IMG/VR virus record: IMGVR_UViG_3300045988_173170
Location: 1-33,227 of that record
DNA: 33,227 nucleotides
Strand: one strand, 5' to 3'
From: a virus
The notes below the pieces were generated by a model. It was not told the DNA's origin. It saw nothing but the letters and a program-made list of their open reading frames with translations, and made no database searches. A program made the position numbers and the translations under genes. Shown here piece by piece: positions 7,472 to 26,818 of the stretch (the first letter of the stretch is position 1; every line of letters starts with the position of its first letter).

Positions 7472-9109
7472 ATGTTAAAAGTTTTAATGTTGCGTAAAAA
7501 ATTAGATACGCAGAAAAAGAATCTTGAGAAATTAAGAAAAAAAGAATCTGATTTTGAAAAACGTACAAAAGAATTAGAAGTTGCAATTTCTGAATTGCGT
7601 GATGATTCAACAGAAGAAGAACAACGAGCCGTTGAAGAAGAAGTAGCAAAATTAGAAGAAGAAAAACAAGAGTACGAAGATGAAAAGAAAGAGTTGGAAG
7701 AGACAATCGCTGATATCGAAAAAGAAATTGAAGAAGCAGAGTCTCAACAACCAACAGATGAACCTAAACAAGAAGAAAATAGAGGAGGACAACAGAAAAT
7801 GACTGTAAGAAAAAAATTCTTCAATATGCCAATGGAAGAACGTGATCGTTTCTTTAAAGATGAGAACGTAGAAAAATTCTTATCAAACGTAAGAACATGT
7901 ATTAAAGAGCATCGTGCAATTGAAAATGTTGGATTAACAATTCCACAAGTTATGTTGCCATTGATTCGTCAAACAGTAGAAGAAAATTCTAAATTGATTT
8001 CAAAAGTTAATTTGCAAAGTGTAAGTGGAACTTCTCGTCAAAATATCATGGGAGACATTCCTGAAGGTATTTGGACTGAAATGTGTGGATCATTGAATGA
8101 AATGGATTTGAAGTTCAATAACATTGAGATGGATGGATACACAGTAGCTGGATTCTTCGCGGTATGCAATGCAGTCTTGGAAGACAGTGACGAAGACTTG
8201 GCTACAGAAATCATTAATGCGATCGGTAAAGCAATTGGTAAAGCATTGGATAAAGCAATTGTCTTTGGCCACGGAGTTAAAATGCCACTTGGTATCGTTA
8301 CTCGATTAGCACAGGAAGAACGTCCAAACGATTATCCTACAACAGCTAGAGCATGGAAAGATTTGCATACTACAAATATTTTAAAAGGAAGCGCTAATCT
8401 TACTGGAAAAGAATTGTTTAAAGATATTATCAAAAAATCAACATGTGTAATCAATGATTACTCTTCTGCAGGATTGACATGGGTAATGAATGAAAAGACT
8501 CATAAATTGTTGATGGCAGAATCATTGGATGCAGATATGAATGGTGCAATTGTTGCCGGAATGCAGAATACAATGCCTATTGTTGGTGGTGAAATTGTTG
8601 AGCTTAACTTTATTGCAGATAACAATATTATCTTCGGACATTTTGATTTATACACATTAGGTGAACGTGCCGGAGCTAAGATTGATCAGTCAGAACACGT
8701 TAAGTTCTTAGACAATCAGACAGTATTCCGTGGTGTAGCTCGCTATGACGGAAAGCCTGCAATTGATGAAGGATTCGGTGTAATGACAATCGATGGTAAA
8801 TCACCAGTAACATCAGCAACATTCCGTGCAGATGATGCAAATGATGCAACATTAACATCATTGACTCTTGGTTCAGAAACATTAGCCTTTAATTCTAACA
8901 CTTACGAATATGAAGTAAGCGCGAATGCAGCAAATGCCGTTGTAAATGCAGTTCCTGCTCAAGAAGGAGCATCAGTGACTATTATGTATGGCGGAAAGAA
9001 ATACAATAATGGCCAGGAATTAACATTAGAAGGAACTAAGAATTTAGTTGTTACTGTTAAGAATGGTATGTCAAAGCTTGCATATACTGTAAAAGTCACA
9101 AAAGGGTAA
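7472..9109 (+). CDS. Major capsid protein (HK97 fold) with N-terminal coiled-coil scaffold/delta region and a C-terminal cadherin-like beta-sandwich domain
   Basis: 545 aa after the protease gene. E/K-rich N-terminal ~110 aa. The C-terminal ~90 aa (ATLTSLTLGSETL.FNSNTYEYEV...YTVKVTKG) matches the remembered pattern of the cadherin-like beta sandwich domain. Confidence 0.88.
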   Translation: MLKVLMLRKKLDTQKKNLEKLRKKESDFEKRTKELEVAISELRDDSTEEEQRAVEEEVAKLEEEKQEYEDEKKELEETIADIEKEIEEAESQQPTDEPKQEENRGGQQKMTVRKKFFNMPMEERDRFFKDENVEKFLSNVRTCIKEHRAIENVGLTIPQVMLPLIRQTVEENSKLISKVNLQSVSGTSRQNIMGDIPEGIWTEMCGSLNEMDLKFNNIEMDGYTVAGFFAVCNAVLEDSDEDLATEIINAIGKAIGKALDKAIVFGHGVKMPLGIVTRLAQEERPNDYPTTARAWKDLHTTNILKGSANLTGKELFKDIIKKSTCVINDYSSAGLTWVMNEKTHKLLMAESLDADMNGAIVAGMQNTMPIVGGEIVELNFIADNNIIFGHFDLYTLGERAGAKIDQSEHVKFLDNQTVFRGVARYDGKPAIDEGFGVMTIDGKSPVTSATFRADDANDATLTSLTLGSETLAFNSNTYEYEVSANAANAVVNAVPAQEGASVTIMYGGKKYNNGQELTLEGTKNLVVTVKNGMSKLAYTVKVTKG

Positions 9110-21560: not shown

Positions 21561-22640
21561 TTAGAAGTTTGAAATTGCATTCAAAACCTCTTCCTCTTCT
21601 GTATCAATAAGATGGCCATAAATATCCATTGTAGTACGTATAGAAGAGTGTCCTAAGCGTTTTGATATCTTGTACATATTAACACCAGCCTCGATAAGAT
21701 TTGAAGCATGTGAGTGTCTTAACGCATGAATATTGAATTCAGGAACTCCAGCTTCTGCACACAATTTGTTTTTTCTTGATCTCAATATTTCAGGATCCAT
21801 GTGTCTATATCCGCCAAAGATGAACCACGACTCTTCAAATTCATCAAATGAAGAATAGTATTTCTTCAATTCATAAATAAACGATTTTGTCTTTTCATCA
21901 ACCGCAATCTTACGAATTGAATTCTTGGTCTTTGGCGTCTGCCACTTACCACGAATATATTGTCTGCGAATATGAATGTATTTACCATCAAAATCCTCAA
22001 AGGTTAAAGATAAACATTCAGATACACGCATGCCTGTCATATACATCGTCCAAATTGCGTATGCCGTATCTTTCCACGCTCCCTCTCTAGTTGTTACTGC
22101 ATATTCAAAAAGTGTCTTAAAATCACTTTTAGGCACGATTTCAAGCTTCTTAGCCTCCGTGGCCACAGGCCTTGTCAAAGGAGCCATCTTAAAAAATGGA
22201 TCATTGATAATACCGTAGTATTTCTTCGCGAATCTAAAGATATTTCTAAGATTAGTTAATAAAGTCTTTTTGGTCGAATACTTATAAGATTTGATCTGTG
22301 GCAATTCAAAGAAGTTGTCTATATCCATATATGTAATCTTGGCCATCTTCTTATCATTAAGCGGAGACAACATATTCAGATACACTCTTTTCGTATCCAG
22401 TGTGGATGGTTTCAACGTTCTAGACTTAAATTCATACCATTTTAAAGAAACTTCATAGAAGGTTACGTTCTGGTCTCCAACAACCTTTAATTGCATAAAA
22501 GTAGATTCTGCAGCTATCGCTTCTTTCCTGGCATTGAACCATTTGGAATGTTTTTGAATACGATCTCCATTAAAATCAGTATAGTAACAACGGTAGCACC
22601 ATTGTTTCTTTCCATTGTGTAGGCGCTCATAAATAGGCAT
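21561..22640 (-). CDS. int: Tyrosine integrase with N-terminal arm-binding-type domain
   Basis: 359 aa. HALRHSHASNLIEAGVNMYKISKRLGHSSIRTTMDIYGHL carries the HxxR...H...Y catalytic motifs. GGAGG RBS. Confidence 0.95.
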   Translation of the reverse strand: MPIYERLHNGKKQWCYRCYYTDFNGDRIQKHSKWFNARKEAIAAESTFMQLKVVGDQNVTFYEVSLKWYEFKSRTLKPSTLDTKRVYLNMLSPLNDKKMAKITYMDIDNFFELPQIKSYKYSTKKTLLTNLRNIFRFAKKYYGIINDPFFKMAPLTRPVATEAKKLEIVPKSDFKTLFEYAVTTREGAWKDTAYAIWTMYMTGMRVSECLSLTFEDFDGKYIHIRRQYIRGKWQTPKTKNSIRKIAVDEKTKSFIYELKKYYSSFDEFEESWFIFGGYRHMDPEILRSRKNKLCAEAGVPEFNIHALRHSHASNLIEAGVNMYKISKRLGHSSIRTTMDIYGHLIDTEEEEVLNAISNF

Positions 22641-22765: not shown

Positions 22766-23620
22766 TTATTTACCTTTTAATTGCTTTGACTGCAGTTTTA
22801 ATCTTTTTTTCTTTTCTTGCTGCAATTGCTTTATACTTTTTGTTGGAGTTGGTAACTCCTCAGGAGCTTTTCCACCTAATTCAATCATCGTTTTTCGAAC
22901 TTGATGTCCAACTTTTCTATGGACAGCACAAGAACGTCCTTCGCCTTGAATATTATCATTCTTTAATTTTTCATCAGTTTGAGTGATTCTAAACCAGTTA
23001 GCAGCCAATTCAGTTGGACCCATGTAATCTAATATATCTTGATTTTTACTAAGGTTCTTTCTGGTCTTGATATCAGCCATATTTTCTCCCCCATAAAGTC
23101 CTTGATAACCAGCATTATTGAATTTCCCAAAGTTTGATACACCATGATCTTGAGCAGTGGTAAACAATGTTTTATTTGAATTTTTCACGTTTTCTCGTAG
23201 TGCCAGTCTTTTTTCATCATCAGACAACTTTTCAATATTATCTTCTAATATCTCTTGTTTTCTTGTTTGAATTGCAAAATACGATTGCCCTTGCGCTACT
23301 GCCTTTTTACGCGCATCTGCATTTTGAACAATCAAGTAACAAGCATATCTTGATAATTTAATATCTTCAATTTCGCGTTCTGTTCCTGAACCTATGAGGA
23401 CCATTTTGTTGGCGTCAACGAAATGGTTTTCGATTACATTGCCACTTTTTTCGCATGCAATTTTTGCCTTGTTTATCACTTTAACAAAATTTCTCCATTC
23501 GTTGTATTGCAATATGTTTTGCAAATCTCTTGCAAGCCAAAATTCAACTCCATTTTTGGAAAGATGTTTTATATCGTCGAATTCTGTTAAATCAAAAATT
23601 GATTGTTGTATATATCCCAT
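22766..23620 (-). CDS. dinD: DinD-like protein (DNA-damage-inducible protein D family)
   Basis: LSRYACYLIVQNADARKKAVAQGQSYFAIQTRKQE...AGYQGLYGG...MGPTELAANWFRITQTDEKLK...GGKAPEELPTP aligns closely with my recollection of E. coli DinD along the whole length. AAAGGAG RBS. Confidence 0.85.
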   Translation of the reverse strand: MGYIQQSIFDLTEFDDIKHLSKNGVEFWLARDLQNILQYNEWRNFVKVINKAKIACEKSGNVIENHFVDANKMVLIGSGTEREIEDIKLSRYACYLIVQNADARKKAVAQGQSYFAIQTRKQEILEDNIEKLSDDEKRLALRENVKNSNKTLFTTAQDHGVSNFGKFNNAGYQGLYGGENMADIKTRKNLSKNQDILDYMGPTELAANWFRITQTDEKLKNDNIQGEGRSCAVHRKVGHQVRKTMIELGGKAPEELPTPTKSIKQLQQEKKKRLKLQSKQLKGK

Positions 23621-23651
23621 ATTTATATTTCTCCTTTATTAAATCTTTCAT

Positions 23652-23686
23652 CTGTATGCACTTAGCATCCAGGATTTTTTATTTTG
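23652..23686 (+). terminator. Diverged copy of hairpin H3 plus T-run, overlapping the stop of the bPH gene
   Basis: CTGTATG CACTTAG CATCCAG GATTTTTTATTTT, compared with CTGGATG TTGGTAG CATCCAG TACTTTTTTATTT at 22738-22772. Confidence 0.45.
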
Positions 23687-24074
23687 CTTCACTTTTCAAT
23701 TTTCTCAATATTTCTCCAGCGAACTCTGCGCCACTTCGATTAATTGAGATTTTAACTTCTCCATCAACTGTATTCAGTATTAAAGTTCCTGCTGTTAATG
23801 TTTTTTTGTAGAATACGTTCCTGATCTGACTCCAATTCCACTCTTTAAACTTATATCCAAACATATTTTTAGAACATTTTATCAGGCGCTTTTTAGTTGC
23901 TACAAAGCATTTTCCATTTACAGTAATGAATGGAAGATTAAGTCTTTCATCTGAATCCAACATCGCGATAATCTGTTCAAAGCATTTGACTGCATTTTTC
24001 TTAGAAATGCCACCAATCAACTCATTGTTGATTGAATAGAAATAAGCTTCCATTGCAATTTCATGATTAGTCAT
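23679..24074 (-). CDS. Bacterial PH-domain (YokE-like) protein, 131 aa
   Basis: Internal ATG at 24074 preferred (GAAAGGAA upstream). The pattern ...CFVATKKRLIKCS...WNWSQIRNVFYKKTLTAGTLILNTVDGEVKISI resembles bPH domains. Confidence 0.55.
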   Translation of the reverse strand: MTNHEIAMEAYFYSINNELIGGISKKNAVKCFEQIIAMLDSDERLNLPFITVNGKCFVATKKRLIKCSKNMFGYKFKEWNWSQIRNVFYKKTLTAGTLILNTVDGEVKISINRSGAEFAGEILRKLKSEAK

Positions 24075-24158
24075 AATAAATTCCTTTCTTTCTGAATGAT
24101 AAATCCAGAATTTTATTGATTTTATAAGATAAAATTGACGTTCGCACAAAGATTTGAT

Positions 24159-24188
24159 AATATAGATGAGCACGTTTTTTGTTGACAA
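24159..24188 (-). promoter_or_regulatory. Candidate leftward promoter for bPH/dinD-like genes (TTGTCA-18-TATATT)
   Basis: Read on the - strand. Its -35 overlaps the -35 of the rightward consensus promoter. The region is AT-rich, so specificity is limited. Confidence 0.35.
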
Positions 24189-24210
24189 CACACAAAACGC
24201 AATTTATAAT
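24182..24210 (+). promoter_or_regulatory. Perfect consensus sigma-70-type promoter TTGACA-17-TATAAT, pointing right against the island genes
   Basis: TTGACA 24182-24187, 17-nt spacer, TATAAT 24205-24210. A second near-consensus TTGACG-17-TAATAT lies at 24135-24163. Confidence 0.6.
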
Positions 24211-24216
24211 TTGATT

Positions 24217-24315
24217 ACAAAGAGGAATTCCTCTACATATCTCATCTACCATTAAATAGGAAGAAGGAGAATCGGAAGCGCTAATATATCATTAGCGCTT
24301 CTTGCATTTTATCTT
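24217..24315 (+). ncRNA. Candidate ~100-nt small RNA (no family assigned)
   Basis: Predicted start about 7 nt after the -10. 5' hairpin AGAGGAATTCCTCT (24221-24234), purine-rich single-stranded stretch, 11-bp terminator hairpin (24275-24301). No start codon follows the internal GAAGGAG. Confidence 0.35.
24275..24301. terminator. 11-bp perfect hairpin shared by the convergent transcripts
   Basis: GAAGCGCTAAT ATATC ATTAGCGCTTC. T-rich sequence follows on both strands. It lies 7 nt past the stop of the 189-aa gene. Confidence 0.7.
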
Positions 24316-24878
24316 GGAATAGATTCAGTTTTGATTTGTGTATGGTTTTGTTTCTTGAAATTTTCGTACTCTTTGATGAGTCTTCTTTTTCTAGAACTAT
24401 ATTCTATTGGATATCCAGTTACAAAATAAATATCACCATTTTTTCTTTCTTCTAAGATAATCATATAATCATTTTTGTCATCAAAACATAAAATTCTTTT
24501 TTTCAAACCTTGTTTAGAAAGAACTTTTGTCCATATTTTTAAATCTCTGTTGAAATAATTTGGAAGGCAATTAGTTGCTGTTATGCGTATTGGACATAGC
24601 TCTCTAGGCATTTTTTCATCTATTAAAGGATTATAGCTAAACGGGTGATTGCAAATAACAAAAGGAGATATGCAATCGCAATCTGAAGGTTTGTATTCTT
24701 TTGTAATCAAATGAAAGTATGATTTTTCATAACCATCTACATCCGGAAATCTTTTTCTATAAATCTCTATTTTATTGTAATAGTTTATGTGATTGAAAAA
24801 TAGATTAATATAGTTTTGATAATGCGAATCTACTAAAAGTCTAATATTCTCATCGTTATATTCATAATTATCGAGCAT
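24309..24878 (-). CDS. Orphan Cys-rich 189-aa protein, translationally coupled to the DUF3800-like gene
   Basis: ATG at 24878 lies 7 nt after GGAGG and 11 nt inside the upstream gene. Cys cluster SDCDCISPFVICNHP...ELCP...TNCLP. No family recognised. Confidence 0.8.
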   Translation of the reverse strand: MLDNYEYNDENIRLLVDSHYQNYINLFFNHINYYNKIEIYRKRFPDVDGYEKSYFHLITKEYKPSDCDCISPFVICNHPFSYNPLIDEKMPRELCPIRITATNCLPNYFNRDLKIWTKVLSKQGLKKRILCFDDKNDYMIILEERKNGDIYFVTGYPIEYSSRKRRLIKEYENFKKQNHTQIKTESIPR

Positions 24879-25572
24879 TTAGAGGCCTCCACTGAAAAAT
24901 ATTGAATTTCTTTATGTATTTGGGAGTTGTTCTATTCAAAGGCTTATTTATTTTTTGCTCTATATAACGGACTAATTCCAATTTAGCTTGACTATTGTTA
25001 AGCCCTCTATTTTTATATGAAACAGCACCAATCAATAAATCTACTAAACCCATTAGTTCAATCTGATCAGAACGTACTAGTTGTATTTTATTAACAGTTG
25101 TATCATAAAATTTATACAGAGTTCCATTTAAAACATCTTTTAAGCTTTCTATTTTTGTACTACCACGTGTATCTTTTATATCAATATAGATATCGTAGCA
25201 AAAATCGACTTCAAGCATTTCTTTTAATACTAGGTAATATATTCTGTAATACAAATCATTATATGCAGGTAAATCATTTCCAAATATTAATTTATCTTTG
25301 TCTGAGGCTACGACTGCCCTGAAGAGCAAATTATCATATTCAAAAAATAAGTCTATTAATTCTTTGTACATTTCAATTTTGCTTTTAGACACTTTAACCC
25401 ATTTGATTTCAGCGTATTTATACACATGGTGTTTTTGCTTGATAGATTTTATTCTTTTATTAATTTCTGACGCAATATCTTTATCACATGAAATAGCTCC
25501 AATAACCATTGCATTACTTGAGTCATGTTCTAAATGACAGCTTTCATCACAATAAATATTAATTTCTTCCAT
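24868..25572 (-). CDS. DUF3800-like protein (234 aa)
   Basis: ATG at 25572 preferred (GGAGG 5 nt upstream; the track start 25584 has no SD). N-terminal INIYCDESCH and C-terminal SDQIELMGLVDLLIGAVSY resemble the two signature blocks of DUF3800. Confidence 0.75.
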   Translation of the reverse strand: MEEINIYCDESCHLEHDSSNAMVIGAISCDKDIASEINKRIKSIKQKHHVYKYAEIKWVKVSKSKIEMYKELIDLFFEYDNLLFRAVVASDKDKLIFGNDLPAYNDLYYRIYYLVLKEMLEVDFCYDIYIDIKDTRGSTKIESLKDVLNGTLYKFYDTTVNKIQLVRSDQIELMGLVDLLIGAVSYKNRGLNNSQAKLELVRYIEQKINKPLNRTTPKYIKKFNIFQWRPLNAR

Positions 25573-25584
25573 AAACTCCTCCAT

Positions 25585-25636
25585 TTTATAATCAAAATCA
25601 AGATATAATTACATACCAAAATTACTTATTATCCTT
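25585..25636. repeat. Copy A of the cassette-junction repeat (includes a relic of the cI 3' end)
   Basis: TTTATAATCAAAATCAAGATATAATTA [13-nt insert] CTTATTATCCTT. Matches copy B at 38 of 39 positions. Confidence 0.75.
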
Positions 25637-25647
25637 TTTAACTCATT

Positions 25648-26070
25648 CTATTTCTGAATTGGTAGATCAGGTAAGTTAGCTCTCTCATCTTCTTCAACAT
25701 TTTCTTTTTCAAAGCCACGATTGAAAAATAAGAATATCGAAATAAACGATAAAACACCTTGCACCGTTGAACAATAAAATCTTTCTGGAACAACTATAAT
25801 TGCTACAAAATATAAGATGCACGAAATTAAAGTTACGATCCAGTTCTTCGATATAGCACTAACTCCAGTTAAAAAGAAGTTAATTACCATACAAATTGTA
25901 AATGGCAATAAATATCTCAATGCCAGCATTGCACCTAACTTTGCAAAATCATTTTTCATGCCAACAATTCCAAATAAACTAATAATTGCAAATATCAAAT
26001 AAATAGCAGTCAATGCTAACGCAATATACATTAATACTGATCCAATTGTTTCTTTTTTCTTTTGTGTCAT
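25648..26070 (-). CDS. Four-TM membrane protein directly downstream of the repressor (superinfection-exclusion-like position)
   Basis: 140 aa with four hydrophobic segments. RBS AAGGGAGAGGG 9 nt before the ATG. Confidence 0.8.
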   Translation of the reverse strand: MTQKKKETIGSVLMYIALALTAIYLIFAIISLFGIVGMKNDFAKLGAMLALRYLLPFTICMVINFFLTGVSAISKNWIVTLISCILYFVAIIVVPERFYCSTVQGVLSFISIFLFFNRGFEKENVEEDERANLPDLPIQK

Positions 26071-26093
26071 AATTTTTAACCCTCTCCCTTAAA

Positions 26094-26132
26094 TTTATAA
26101 TCAAAATCTAGATATAATTACTTATTATCCTT
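26094..26132. repeat. Copy B of the cassette-junction repeat (spans the real cI stop codon)
   Basis: TTTATAATCAAAATCTAGATATAATTA CTTATTATCCTT. TTA at 26118-26120 is the cI stop on the - strand. Confidence 0.75.
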
Positions 26133-26462
26133 CATAACTCTTTCGTATTCCATCTGAGCAACTGTATCCACTGTGTGTTGGCCTTTGTCGTCAAGCCCTC
26201 TATATATATCTAAGTGTTCACGTTCGTGATCGGTAAGGATGTAAGAATCATTTCCTAGTTCTTCCCATCCCATAAGATATTGAGGGGTACATTTCAAAAC
26301 CCTGGCTAATGGTGGAACAATATCGGTAGGCAATTTTTTTATACTTTCCGATTCATACCTCATCACAGTAGTTTTGTTAACTCCTAACGCATTTGCAACA
26401 TCTTCCAATGTCAGTTTTAATTGTTGTCTTCTTGATTTAATTCGTTCTTGTATTGTCTTCAT
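26118..26462 (-). CDS. cI-like XRE-family repressor (114 aa, no peptidase domain)
   Basis: ATG at 26462. IKSRRQQLKLTLEDVANALGVNKTTVMRYESE is an XRE HTH. Divergent from the cro-like gene across the operator region. Confidence 0.85.
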   Translation of the reverse strand: MKTIQERIKSRRQQLKLTLEDVANALGVNKTTVMRYESESIKKLPTDIVPPLARVLKCTPQYLMGWEELGNDSYILTDHEREHLDIYRGLDDKGQHTVDTVAQMEYERVMKDNK

Positions 26463-26504
26463 GTGTACAAACCTTCTCATTTCTAATCTAAGTATAAAAA
26501 GAAA

Positions 26505-26581
26505 ATTGCAAAAAAGTAACAAAAATCGTTGACATAATGCAACACGGGTATATAATATTAATGAAGTTGCAAGAACGCAAC
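26505..26581. promoter_or_regulatory. Three 16-bp operator-like inverted repeats, consensus GTTGC-N6-GCAAC
   Basis: ATTGCaaaaaaGTAAC 26505-26520. GTTGAcataatGCAAC 26528-26543 (overlaps the -35). GTTGCaagaacGCAAC 26566-26581 (downstream of the -10). Confidence 0.6.
26529..26556 (+). promoter_or_regulatory. Early rightward promoter TTGACA-16-TATAAT
   Basis: TTGACA 26529-26534 and TATAAT 26551-26556, about 45 nt upstream of the cro-like start. Confidence 0.7.
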
Positions 26582-26599
26582 ATGAAAGGAAGGAGTATT

Positions 26600-26818
26600 A
26601 TGAAAGTGAATGTAAAGTTGTTAGAAGAAGAAATGGATAAAAAGCATGTATCTGTATCGGAATTGGCAAGAATGAGCAATGTTGATAAATCTACTATAAG
26701 TAGATTATTAAACGAACAAAGAGCGTGTTCGATTGCTACAGCACAAGCTGTAGTACAAGCATTGGATATTCCGTCTAAAAAAGCAGGACTTATTTTTTTT
26801 AGCACCGAAGTTGAATAA
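26600..26818 (+). CDS. Cro-like XRE-family HTH protein (72 aa)
   Basis: ATG at 26600 after AAGGAAGGAG. VSVSELARMSNVDKSTISRLLN is an HTH. Confidence 0.75.
   Translation: MKVNVKLLEEEMDKKHVSVSELARMSNVDKSTISRLLNEQRACSIATAQAVVQALDIPSKKAGLIFFSTEVE

Follow-up and report, generated by a model that had tools for sequence, protein, structure and literature searches.

A conserved, predicted small structured RNA accompanies the RlfA/RlfB gene pair (DUF3800) in phages and bacterial genomes

What do two overlapping genes between the repressor and the integrase of a phage genome encode, and do they act as a pair or with a further partner? This question is raised by a locus in the IMG/VR virus record IMGVR_UViG_3300045988_173170, of which positions 1 to 33,227 were analysed (this whole stretch of 33,227 nucleotides is referred to as the window). 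The two genes, here called A and B, lie on the minus strand (Table 1), and an earlier reading of the bare letters (the sequence-only reading) had taken them for a candidate undescribed two-component defence or exclusion system formed by a DUF3800-like protein and a cysteine-rich orphan. Neither adjective survived our analysis. To judge from sequence comparison, A and B are almost certainly a somewhat divergent new member of the family of RlfA and RlfB from phage P1, which PADLOC lists as PDC-M04. Furthermore, a conserved small RNA (sRNA) gene, whose two ends had been mistaken for a terminator of the pair and a promoter facing it, very probably provides a third component.

The arrangement of the two open reading frames (ORFs) was confirmed as first described. 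The stop codon of A and the ATG of B overlap by 11 nt, and a GGAGG motif is located 7 nt before the ATG of B, inside A. Translation of A most likely starts at position 25572, where a GGAGG is found 5 nt upstream and where the homologues begin too; the first ATG of the ORF is at position 25584, and an extension to that start is possible. A profile search identified A as a DUF3800 protein, as had been proposed, with a match to profile positions 1-148 of the 149 of Pfam PF12686 (E 7e-12, 46.7 bits against a gathering cut-off of 21). A also matches the PADLOC model PDC-M04A (E 7.6e-81) and, by tblastn, RlfA of phage P1 (40.9% identity over 96% of the query, E 2e-52) and likewise RapA of phage P7. 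B had been reported to resemble nothing known. This is true of Pfam and NCBIfam, in which B has no match, but B matches nine PADLOC PDC-M04B models (best E 7e-16), and the profile of its family matches RlfB of phage P1 with an E value of 5.3e-46. Searches by sequence returned no PDB chain for either protein. A PADLOC scan of the pair returned only PDC-M04 and no match to a named defence system; both component hidden Markov models (HMMs) of PDC-M04 are matched, by genes adjacent on one strand. A full-text literature search found no mention of PDC-M04. In phage P1 (GenBank AF234172, a record we take to be that of the 2004 genome paper), the genes stand in the same order with the same kind of start/stop overlap, rlfA ending where rlfB starts. 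The phage P1 rlfA-rlfB and P7 rapA-rapB loci thereby have homologous proteins, gene order and overlap in common with A-B, and also share the RNA described below, on the opposite strand after the second gene.

Relatives of A are numerous, with 5876 homologues at E <= 1e-3, and are conserved across phyla at 40-60% identity. In a scan of one genome per species, relatives of A were encoded in 566 stretches, the best 80 of which were used as genome loci; these come from many phyla and are 40-57% identical to A. In 75 of the 80 loci, an ORF of the B family, ~120-220 aa long (mostly 155-190), adjoins or overlaps A at its stop codon, and all 75 of these ORFs match the B profile at E <= 2e-22, which establishes the two genes as conserved neighbours. 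Relatives of B itself were recovered in very different numbers by a word-indexed search (4) and by a full profile search (97 representatives), and B evolves faster than A. Four of the 80 loci (L034, L038, L054 and L069) retain an intact A together with the RNA but have B broken up into two or three short ORFs, which may be pseudogenes.

The region downstream of B had been read as punctuation, namely an 11-bp terminator hairpin belonging to the pair and a consensus promoter facing it. The hairpin does exist, but it comprises 12 bp and carries its T-rich tail on the plus strand, so that it terminates the convergent transcript and not the A-B mRNA. The promoter is indeed a perfect TTGACA-17-TATAAT, and it lies on the plus strand 64 nt upstream of this hairpin (P2) and belongs to the sRNA gene that P2 ends. 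The ~95-nt sRNA has a predicted folding energy of -31 kcal/mol (z = -5.7 against shuffled sequence). In close relatives of the locus, an 85-nt block starting from the stop codon of B is ~85-90% identical, whereas their A and B proteins are only 53-74% identical, and each of these loci has its own promoter on the strand antisense to A-B. At one locus (L082), hairpin P2 contains a compensatory change (GCGC to GAGC/GCTC).

Across the A-B family, phage P1 included, the strand opposite A-B encodes an RNA of the form 5'-CUCAUCUACCAUGUGUAGAAGGAG-UAACG-(GC-rich hairpin)-U-rich tail. In an alignment of 54 sequences, the two-hairpin structure pairs 95% of the cells, compared to 43-50% when the partners are slid against each other. 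Changes on both sides were found in 12 of the 18 pairs (128 cells), and none of 500 shuffles reached the observed values; in hairpin P2, 9 of 10 pairs showed both-side changes (54 sequences). RNAalifold independently gave the same two-hairpin structure. Hairpin P1, in turn, is nearly invariant in sequence across phyla. G·U pairs occur at three positions in 17, 16 and 30 sequences, respectively, and the other strand would have A·C mismatches at these places. The G·U pairs are thus strand-specific, which fixes the functional strand and favours an RNA over a duplex DNA element. Compared to the RNA of phage P1, that of the window has a longer hairpin P1 and an extra 5' hairpin.

We then built a covariance model of the RNA (R1) and ran it on a search space of 886 kb that included the genome loci, phage P1, the window and its relatives. 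R1 gave one strong match per locus, directly after B, in 73 of the 80 genome loci, and three further weak matches in a divergent subclade brought the total to 76; of the four loci without a match, three are truncated at contig ends. Relatives of the window gave matches as well. Outside the expected sites, a single spurious weak match was obtained in the 886 kb. The match in the window spans 24233-24325 on the plus strand (59.4 bits, E 7e-18). In phage P1, the RNA was found between rlfB and pmgF (E 2e-17; L081 5135-5226 on the minus strand, corresponding to AF234172 ~52892-52983), where it is present and unannotated, and P7 carries it too. The downstream regions of loci L035, L047, L053 and L066, where R1 matches weakly or not at all, resemble one another (81-88% over 68-112 nt), and the RNA of this subclade is probably a diverged form.

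At every locus but two, the RNA runs convergently to B; the two exceptions have it in sense orientation, each with a perfect promoter for it. Upstream of the RNA, the best match to the sigma-70 consensus covers on average 9.4 of 12 positions, compared to 7.0 in controls, and its -10 hexamer has its end at the same position, ~8 nt before CUCAUC, give or take 1-2 bases, in ~45 of 78 loci. Control of B by cis-antisense pairing is unlikely as the conserved mechanism, since the overlap with B ranges from none to ~80 nt and two loci are sense-oriented. We also rejected a small ORF within the RNA, since an AUG in the loop of hairpin P1 and a Shine-Dalgarno (SD)-AUG combination were seen only in subsets of the aligned sequences that do not include the window type, and a mimicry of tRNA by hairpin P1, whose loop on inspection has neither U33 nor the 7-nt geometry.

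No family of Rfam 15 reached its gathering score in the window or in 14 loci; at E <= 10 there was no match in window positions 23500-26600 nor in an orphan copy of the RNA (see below), and at E <= 1 none in phage P1 and six other loci. A full-text search of the literature for the RNA sequence returned nothing relevant. Structured RNAs associated with DUF3800 genes have been described before, however: Weinberg et al. 2017 reported eleven such motifs (DUF3800-I to -XI), and also drum and skipping-rope, which end in terminators and occur on either strand. The RNA described here resembles the DUF3800 motifs in being structured, in its intrinsic terminator, in its tight link to DUF3800 genes and in its occurrence on either strand. 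It differs from them in consisting of two hairpins, in being linked to the RlfA subfamily together with RlfB, and in being borne by phages also without a DUF3800 gene; the Rfam families DUF3800-I (RF02969) and DUF3800-IX (RF02968) do not match it. As far as our searches show, it is an additional DUF3800-associated motif beyond the known ones. At locus L005, an Rfam ssNA-helicase RNA motif was seen ~540 nt beyond the RlfAB-associated RNA (7767-7816 on the plus strand).

Because the RNA is conserved beyond the proteins, covaries and is present in 76 of the 80 loci, we regard the A-B module as tripartite and hold with high confidence that the RNA is a genuine component of it. What is new here is that the RlfAB family is tripartite, and that its RNA is a widespread, unannotated RNA of phages and mobile elements. 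The sequence-only reading had instead suggested two proteins forming a sensor and effector or a toxin and antitoxin; in such a pair, B would be the sensor or antitoxin by means of its cysteine cluster, and hairpin and promoter would be mere punctuation. The conserved overlap and coupling of A and B agree with this explanation, as does the fact that PADLOC lists the pair as a two-gene candidate. However, the supposed punctuation is more conserved than the proteins and covaries as an RNA, and most of the family has no cysteine cluster. The cluster itself is real (C67, C69, C76, H78, C95 and C131), but it is conserved only in the five closest homologues and sits, as CxCx6CxH, in a subfamily-specific insertion that the wider B family lacks. 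B is no orphan but a member of a large family. The positions conserved family-wide are Y20, F/Y54, H56, W116, Y138, L142 and T154, and three otherwise conserved residues, of the RCERIxW motif, are replaced in the subfamily of the window, which sets its B apart from RlfB of phage P1. With these residues replaced, the cysteine insertion cannot be the sensing device of the family, and a zinc-binding sensor was rejected as a family feature on account of the confinement of the insertion to the closest relatives. We therefore judge the two-protein explanation very improbable.

The structural models suggest what A might do. The AlphaFold model of A (predicted local distance difference test, pLDDT, of 87.3) had RNase HII as its best Foldseek match (1eke_A, E 1.1e-6, probability 1.00), and all 23 matches at E <= 1e-3 were RNase HII, H2 or HIII structures, including archaeal RNase HII and human RNase H2A. 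The template modelling (TM) scores were 0.55-0.58 for 1eke_A and ~0.5-0.55 for the RNase HII/H2 fold overall, at sequence identities of 10-16%. With RNase HII and the catalytic subunit of RNase H2, A would share the overall fold and a set of carboxylates on equivalent core elements, in line with published descriptions of DUF3800 as RNase H-like. Residues D9, E10, D131, D134 and D178 are invariant in the homologues, D9-E10 and D178 throughout 47 sequences, and because of this invariance of the acidic residues the modelled catalytic centre of A is plausibly intact. DUF3800 proteins have been described as having an N-terminal D-E motif and a C-terminal QxxD motif (Mestre et al. 2020). The Q of the latter, three residues before D178, reads QLxD in the family consensus, but is replaced by G (MGLVD) in the window and its nearest homologues. 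For B, the AlphaFold model reached a pLDDT of 94, yet a Foldseek search of the PDB gave nothing significant (best E 0.016), and among the BFVD viral models there was one match only, to an uncharacterised protein.

A-B relatives are found in mobile elements and defence islands. The window has the layout of a temperate phage, with structural genes on the plus strand up to ~21.1 kb, followed by the integrase and then by a row of minus-strand genes that extends to a cI-like repressor, which is opposed by a cro-like gene. Its phage is also present integrated in a chromosome (L096), whose SufB has its nearest named sequences in Erysipelotrichaceae (87% to Catenisphaera); by these sequence criteria, the window appears to be a prophage of Erysipelotrichaceae and the locus part of its lysogeny region. 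No close relative of the window at the nucleotide level was found among GenBank phages or in IMG/VR. In three prophages or prophage remnants (L088, L090 and L095), whose A proteins are 63-74% identical to that of the window, the order is repressor, small ORF, A, B and integrase, and a small integrated element beside smpB has the order helix-turn-helix (HTH) repressor, A, B and integrase. The slot between repressor and integrase thus holds A-B in four independent prophages or integrated elements. A more distant relative is cargo of a Tn7-like transposon, where it adjoins a type I restriction-modification (R-M) system and a KAP NTPase, and a tRNA or tmRNA gene lies within ~0.5 kb in 4 of 14 scanned loci. 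Most family members reside in bacterial chromosomes of many phyla. Taken together, these surroundings are those of conflict and mobility, not of housekeeping.

The suspicion of a conflict module in a moron slot was therefore reasonable, and we lean towards a role of A-B and the RNA in conflict, either defence or addiction. This view is drawn from the repressor-integrase slot, the Tn7-like cargo beside R-M genes, the derivation of the PDC set, and the finding that rlfAB is non-essential and replaceable. The 145 phage defence candidates of the PDC set were predicted because their genes occur inside BREX, DISARM and type I R-M loci; as a member of this set, PDC-M04 is a two-gene prediction by guilt-by-embedding that includes neither an RNA component nor a proposed mechanism. 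In phage P1, CRISPR interference (CRISPRi) with plaque formation as the readout showed rlfAB to be non-essential, and in P1-like plasmids the genes have been reported as deleted or replaced by other cargo.

The RNA also occurs apart from the pair. An exact 24-mer of hairpin P1 was present in 60 IMG/VR contigs, and R1 found the full RNA in 59; the remaining copy is truncated where its contig stops. A-B lies beside the RNA in only 7 of the 60 contigs; 34 contigs extend for at least 1.5 kb to either side of the RNA, and 27 of these contain no A-B. We found no conserved protein neighbour of these orphan copies; their neighbours are diverse and include integrase, methylase, serine recombinase, RNase T-like exonuclease and terminase-sized ORFs (by size only). 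Orphan copies are mostly co-directional with the flanking genes and lack the promoter that the A-B loci have at a fixed distance. Thirteen lie at most 500 nt from tRNA genes on the same strand, some of them inside large tRNA arrays. Orphans in tRNA arrays were noted in L103, L106, L113, L114, L116, L121, L125, L132, L134, L135, L140, L146-L148 and L150; in L134 the RNA begins 2 nt after tRNA-Trp, and in L140 it lies within an array of 37 tRNA genes. Several contigs appear, from the search output, to hold a second hairpin-P1 element beside the full RNA.

In GenBank phages, the RNA is always located in unannotated intergenic DNA. Its carriers are SPbeta/phi3T-like Bacillus phages, phages of Vibrio, Geobacillus, Rhizobium, Streptococcus and Mammaliicoccus, P1/P7 and Bbif-1. 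In SPbeta (L160, NC_001884 ~59629-59656), it lies in the 1.7-kb gap between yonN and yonK, at the start of the late operon transcribed by YonO, and a published study of this late-operon region mentions 'an unannotated non-coding RNA'. SPbeta-like IMG/VR contigs with the RNA are L111, L115, L124, L126, L143, L151, L154 and L156, and in several SPbeta-like contigs a second P1-like hairpin element lies ~55 nt upstream of the full RNA. In E. coli, the RNA was found in 174 of 5426 complete genomes, at 118 places on plasmids and 61 on chromosomes. Four matches are 100% identical to phage P1 and lie on plasmids of 74-99 kb, which, from their size and this identity, we infer to be P1-like. At one chromosomal place, a prophage of NZ_CP027587 (L161 5001-5071), the RNA is located ~400 nt downstream of a gene for a Q-family antiterminator, with no A-B nearby; a second one that we inspected is an island of hypothetical genes. 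The position in L161 is roughly where lambdoid phages have their short pR'-tR' leader transcript, and a dinD pseudogene follows the RNA.

How might the three components work together? The near-identity of hairpin P1 across phyla suggests an equally conserved binding partner, for which A and B are the obvious candidates. In the model that we favour, A would be an RNase H-like nuclease and B its translationally coupled partner with a confidently predicted fold, while the RNA would be a regulatory ligand of A-B, most likely an inhibitor comparable to an antitoxin, made constitutively and in excess. An infecting phage or a competing element would upset this balance and set the nuclease free, which would halt the infection or the cell; orphan copies in phages would be decoys that keep the nuclease silenced. 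An inhibitory RNA with decoy copies would explain why the RNA is obligately linked to A-B in bacterial genomes, why it has a strong promoter to itself, why its orientation does not matter and why promoter-less copies lie in highly transcribed regions of phages, and we prefer it since it covers the most observations. Even so, we regard an inhibitory role of the RNA, with decoys in phages, as possible but somewhat less likely than not, and we propose the model as a whole, an RNA-controlled nuclease module of mobile elements in the manner of type III toxin-antitoxin or abortive infection systems, tentatively and by analogy.

The analogy is with ToxIN, in which a nuclease is restrained by a small structured RNA encoded alongside it, and against which phages carry look-alike pseudo-ToxI RNAs (PhiTE). 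It serves as a working analogy only, and it has clear limits. Type III systems (ToxIN, CptIN and TenpIN) have a tandem-repeat RNA upstream of the toxin gene, whereas here a single unit with its own promoter usually lies convergent downstream of B. Their toxins are ToxN/Kid-like, while A is predicted to have an RNase H-like fold and a partner, B. A second comparison is offered by DUF3800 proteins in other immune modules, which include type VII retrons (reverse transcriptase (RT), non-coding RNA (ncRNA) and DUF3800 effector), TPR-DUF3800 proteins with Cas12a2/a3, and Csx32 in CASK. These have in common with A that an RNase H-like DUF3800 protein belongs to a module with a dedicated ncRNA. In contrast, no RT, Cas gene or CRISPR array lies near A-B, and the partner of the DUF3800 protein is RlfB.

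Alternatively, the RNA could be a cofactor, guide or scaffold, with A-B using hairpin P1 to find or cut a target, comparable to RNase H-fold nucleases loaded with small RNAs. The 3' arm of hairpin P1 (GAAGGAG) is SD-like, so that A-B might act on the anti-SD end of 16S rRNA, on a tRNA or on the nucleic acid of an invader. A near-invariant hairpin would suit the recognition of a target that is just as universal, guide-using nucleases have an RNase H fold too, and weak matches to Argonaute PIWI domains appear low in the Foldseek list of A. Moreover, the biology of Cas12a2/a3 and of Cas13-CASK, which DUF3800 proteins accompany, centres on tRNA ends, and orphan RNAs occur among tRNA genes. On the other hand, the Argonaute matches are non-significant (E ~0.3), the conserved bases lie mostly within the stem, unlike single-stranded seed or guide regions, no conserved target could be identified, and a phage with orphan copies identical to the guide would be arming the nuclease, not helping itself. 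A guiding role thus seems unlikely to us.

Phage P1 itself suggests a further explanation, in which the module serves the phage life cycle, with A processing an RNA primer or R-loop or maturing RNAs, and with the sRNA as its substrate. In AF234172, rlfA and rlfB come after repL/oriL, a C1 operator stands before them, and their annotation reads 'possibly associated with lytic replication'. A transcriptome study of phage P1 likewise groups rlfA/B with the replication genes, and the RNA of other phages heads late operons or lies in tRNA arrays. However, the rlf genes are dispensable for P1 plaques and are lost or exchanged in P1-like plasmids; most family members are chromosomal, one being Tn7 cargo by an R-M system, with 4 of 14 loci near tRNA or tmRNA genes. 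Whereas the pair of phage P1 follows a lytic replicon and a C1 operator, that of the window follows the repressor in a lysogeny module, and there and in its relatives it shares a strand with the repressor and is remote from the replication genes. We consider a life-cycle function distinctly unlikely, even more so than a guiding one.

Several of our observations nevertheless speak against an inhibitor-controlled defence module. In phage P1, the C1 operator before rlfA suggests that the genes are repressed in the lysogen and expressed in lytic growth, and the authors of the PDC set describe its 145 systems as untested. Nothing points to which of the two proteins would be toxic; the loci with a fragmented B are metagenome-assembled genomes, in which the breaks may be errors. 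For B, weak hints of a RelE/BECR RNase fold stay below significance: Foldseek matches to HigB and CdiA-CT are non-significant (E 0.06-0.7, TM ~0.2), and Pfam PBECR2 is weakly matched by 3 of 72 B-family members (best E 6.6e-4), with no match from the family consensus. The RNA occurs as one copy under a promoter of its own, and not as a tandem-repeat precursor within a toxin operon. Finally, orphan RNAs could serve phages by a function of their own, apart from A-B, since they occur where the SPbeta late operon begins, downstream from the Q gene of an E. coli prophage and in tRNA arrays. The C1 operator and such a separate function of the RNA weigh most heavily against the model.

DUF3800 genes have been found as parts of retrons, of Cas12a2/a3 and Cas13 loci and of defence islands, and have been known since the 2017 report to travel with structured RNAs. 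Our results tie a large branch of this family, of the phage P1 RlfA type, to RlfB and to one small, nearly invariant RNA (75 and 76 of the 80 loci, respectively). The triad is present in phage P1 and in P1-like plasmids of E. coli, where genetics is easy, and an unannotated sRNA is thereby flagged in phage P1, SPbeta-like phages and many phage tRNA arrays. If an RNA-gated nuclease with a matching antidote were borne out, the P1 rlf genes, one DUF3800 branch and a widespread phage RNA would each acquire a function. The broadest form of this claim, that RlfA, RlfB and the RNA constitute a previously unrecognised cross-phylum class of RNA-gated nucleases and that the orphan RNAs of phages are a broad-spectrum antidote, is one that we find doubtful at present. 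Even if the module has nothing to do with conflict, an annotation is corrected, in that the 'terminator' and 'promoter' beside the pair are a gene.

Table 1. Positions of the A-B-sRNA locus and its neighbours in the window
Feature	Position	Strand	Description
Integrase	21561-22640	-	
DinD-like protein	22766-23620	-	284 aa, Bro-N domain
Bacterial PH-domain protein	23679-24074	-	131 aa
Candidate promoter of PH-domain gene	24188-24159		Back-to-back with sRNA promoter
sRNA promoter	24182..24210	+	TTGACA-17 nt-TATAAT, 12/12; one of two such matches in 3.5 kb
Predicted sRNA, ~95 nt	24217..24312	+	Runs towards B and ends at the B stop codon; convergent with A-B
sRNA 5' hairpin	24221-24234	+	Part of the predicted sRNA
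sRNA hairpin P1	24241-24269	+	CUCAUCUACC...GGAAGAAGGAG; followed by short linker, P2 and U-rich tail
sRNA hairpin P2	24274..24302	+	12-bp terminator hairpin, then TGCATTTTAT on the plus strand
Gene B	24309..24878	-	RlfB-like partner, 189 aa; ATG 24876-24878
Gene A	24868..25572	-	RlfA-like DUF3800 protein, 234 aa, predicted RNase HII/H2-like fold; stop at 24868-24870
Duplicated junction, copy 2	25578..25648	-	Non-coding relic of the repressor 3' end and intergenic leader, directly upstream of A
140-aa ORF	25648-26070	-	Predicted multi-pass membrane protein
Duplicated junction, copy 1	26087..26144	-	True repressor 3' end and leader of the 140-aa membrane-protein ORF
cI-like HTH repressor	26118..26462	-	NCBIfam DicA/RstR-type HTH; heads the row repressor, 140-aa ORF, A, B
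Promoter upstream of cro-like gene	26529-26556	+	TTGACA-16-TATAAT

Within the window, no terminator-like site was predicted on the minus strand from 27000 to 23500, and so none lies between the repressor and A-B. As A-B shares the repressor's strand and no predicted terminator intervenes, expression of the pair in the lysogen is plausible, and the repressor transcript probably carries A-B there. The duplicated junction sequence upstream of A had been taken to mark the pair as an exchangeable cassette. The duplication is genuine, with direct repeats of 60-70 nt that take in the last eight codons of the repressor, but its two copies flank the ORF of 140 aa, whose product has no family match. The inserted cassette therefore appears to be this ORF, between the repressor and A, and not A-B; it is possible that the membrane protein is a superinfection-exclusion gene product.

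Other genes of the region were annotated as well. The only other perfect sigma-70 consensus in the scanned 3.5 kb immediately precedes the cro-like gene, across from the repressor, and is presumably the early lytic promoter. The gene downstream of the locus encodes a PH-domain protein (bPH_3, E 3e-10). It is followed by the gene of a DinD-like protein, with matches to NCBIfam DinD (E 2.5e-111) and PADLOC PDC-S13 (E 7e-110), which makes it a second predicted phage defence candidate within the lysogeny module of the window.

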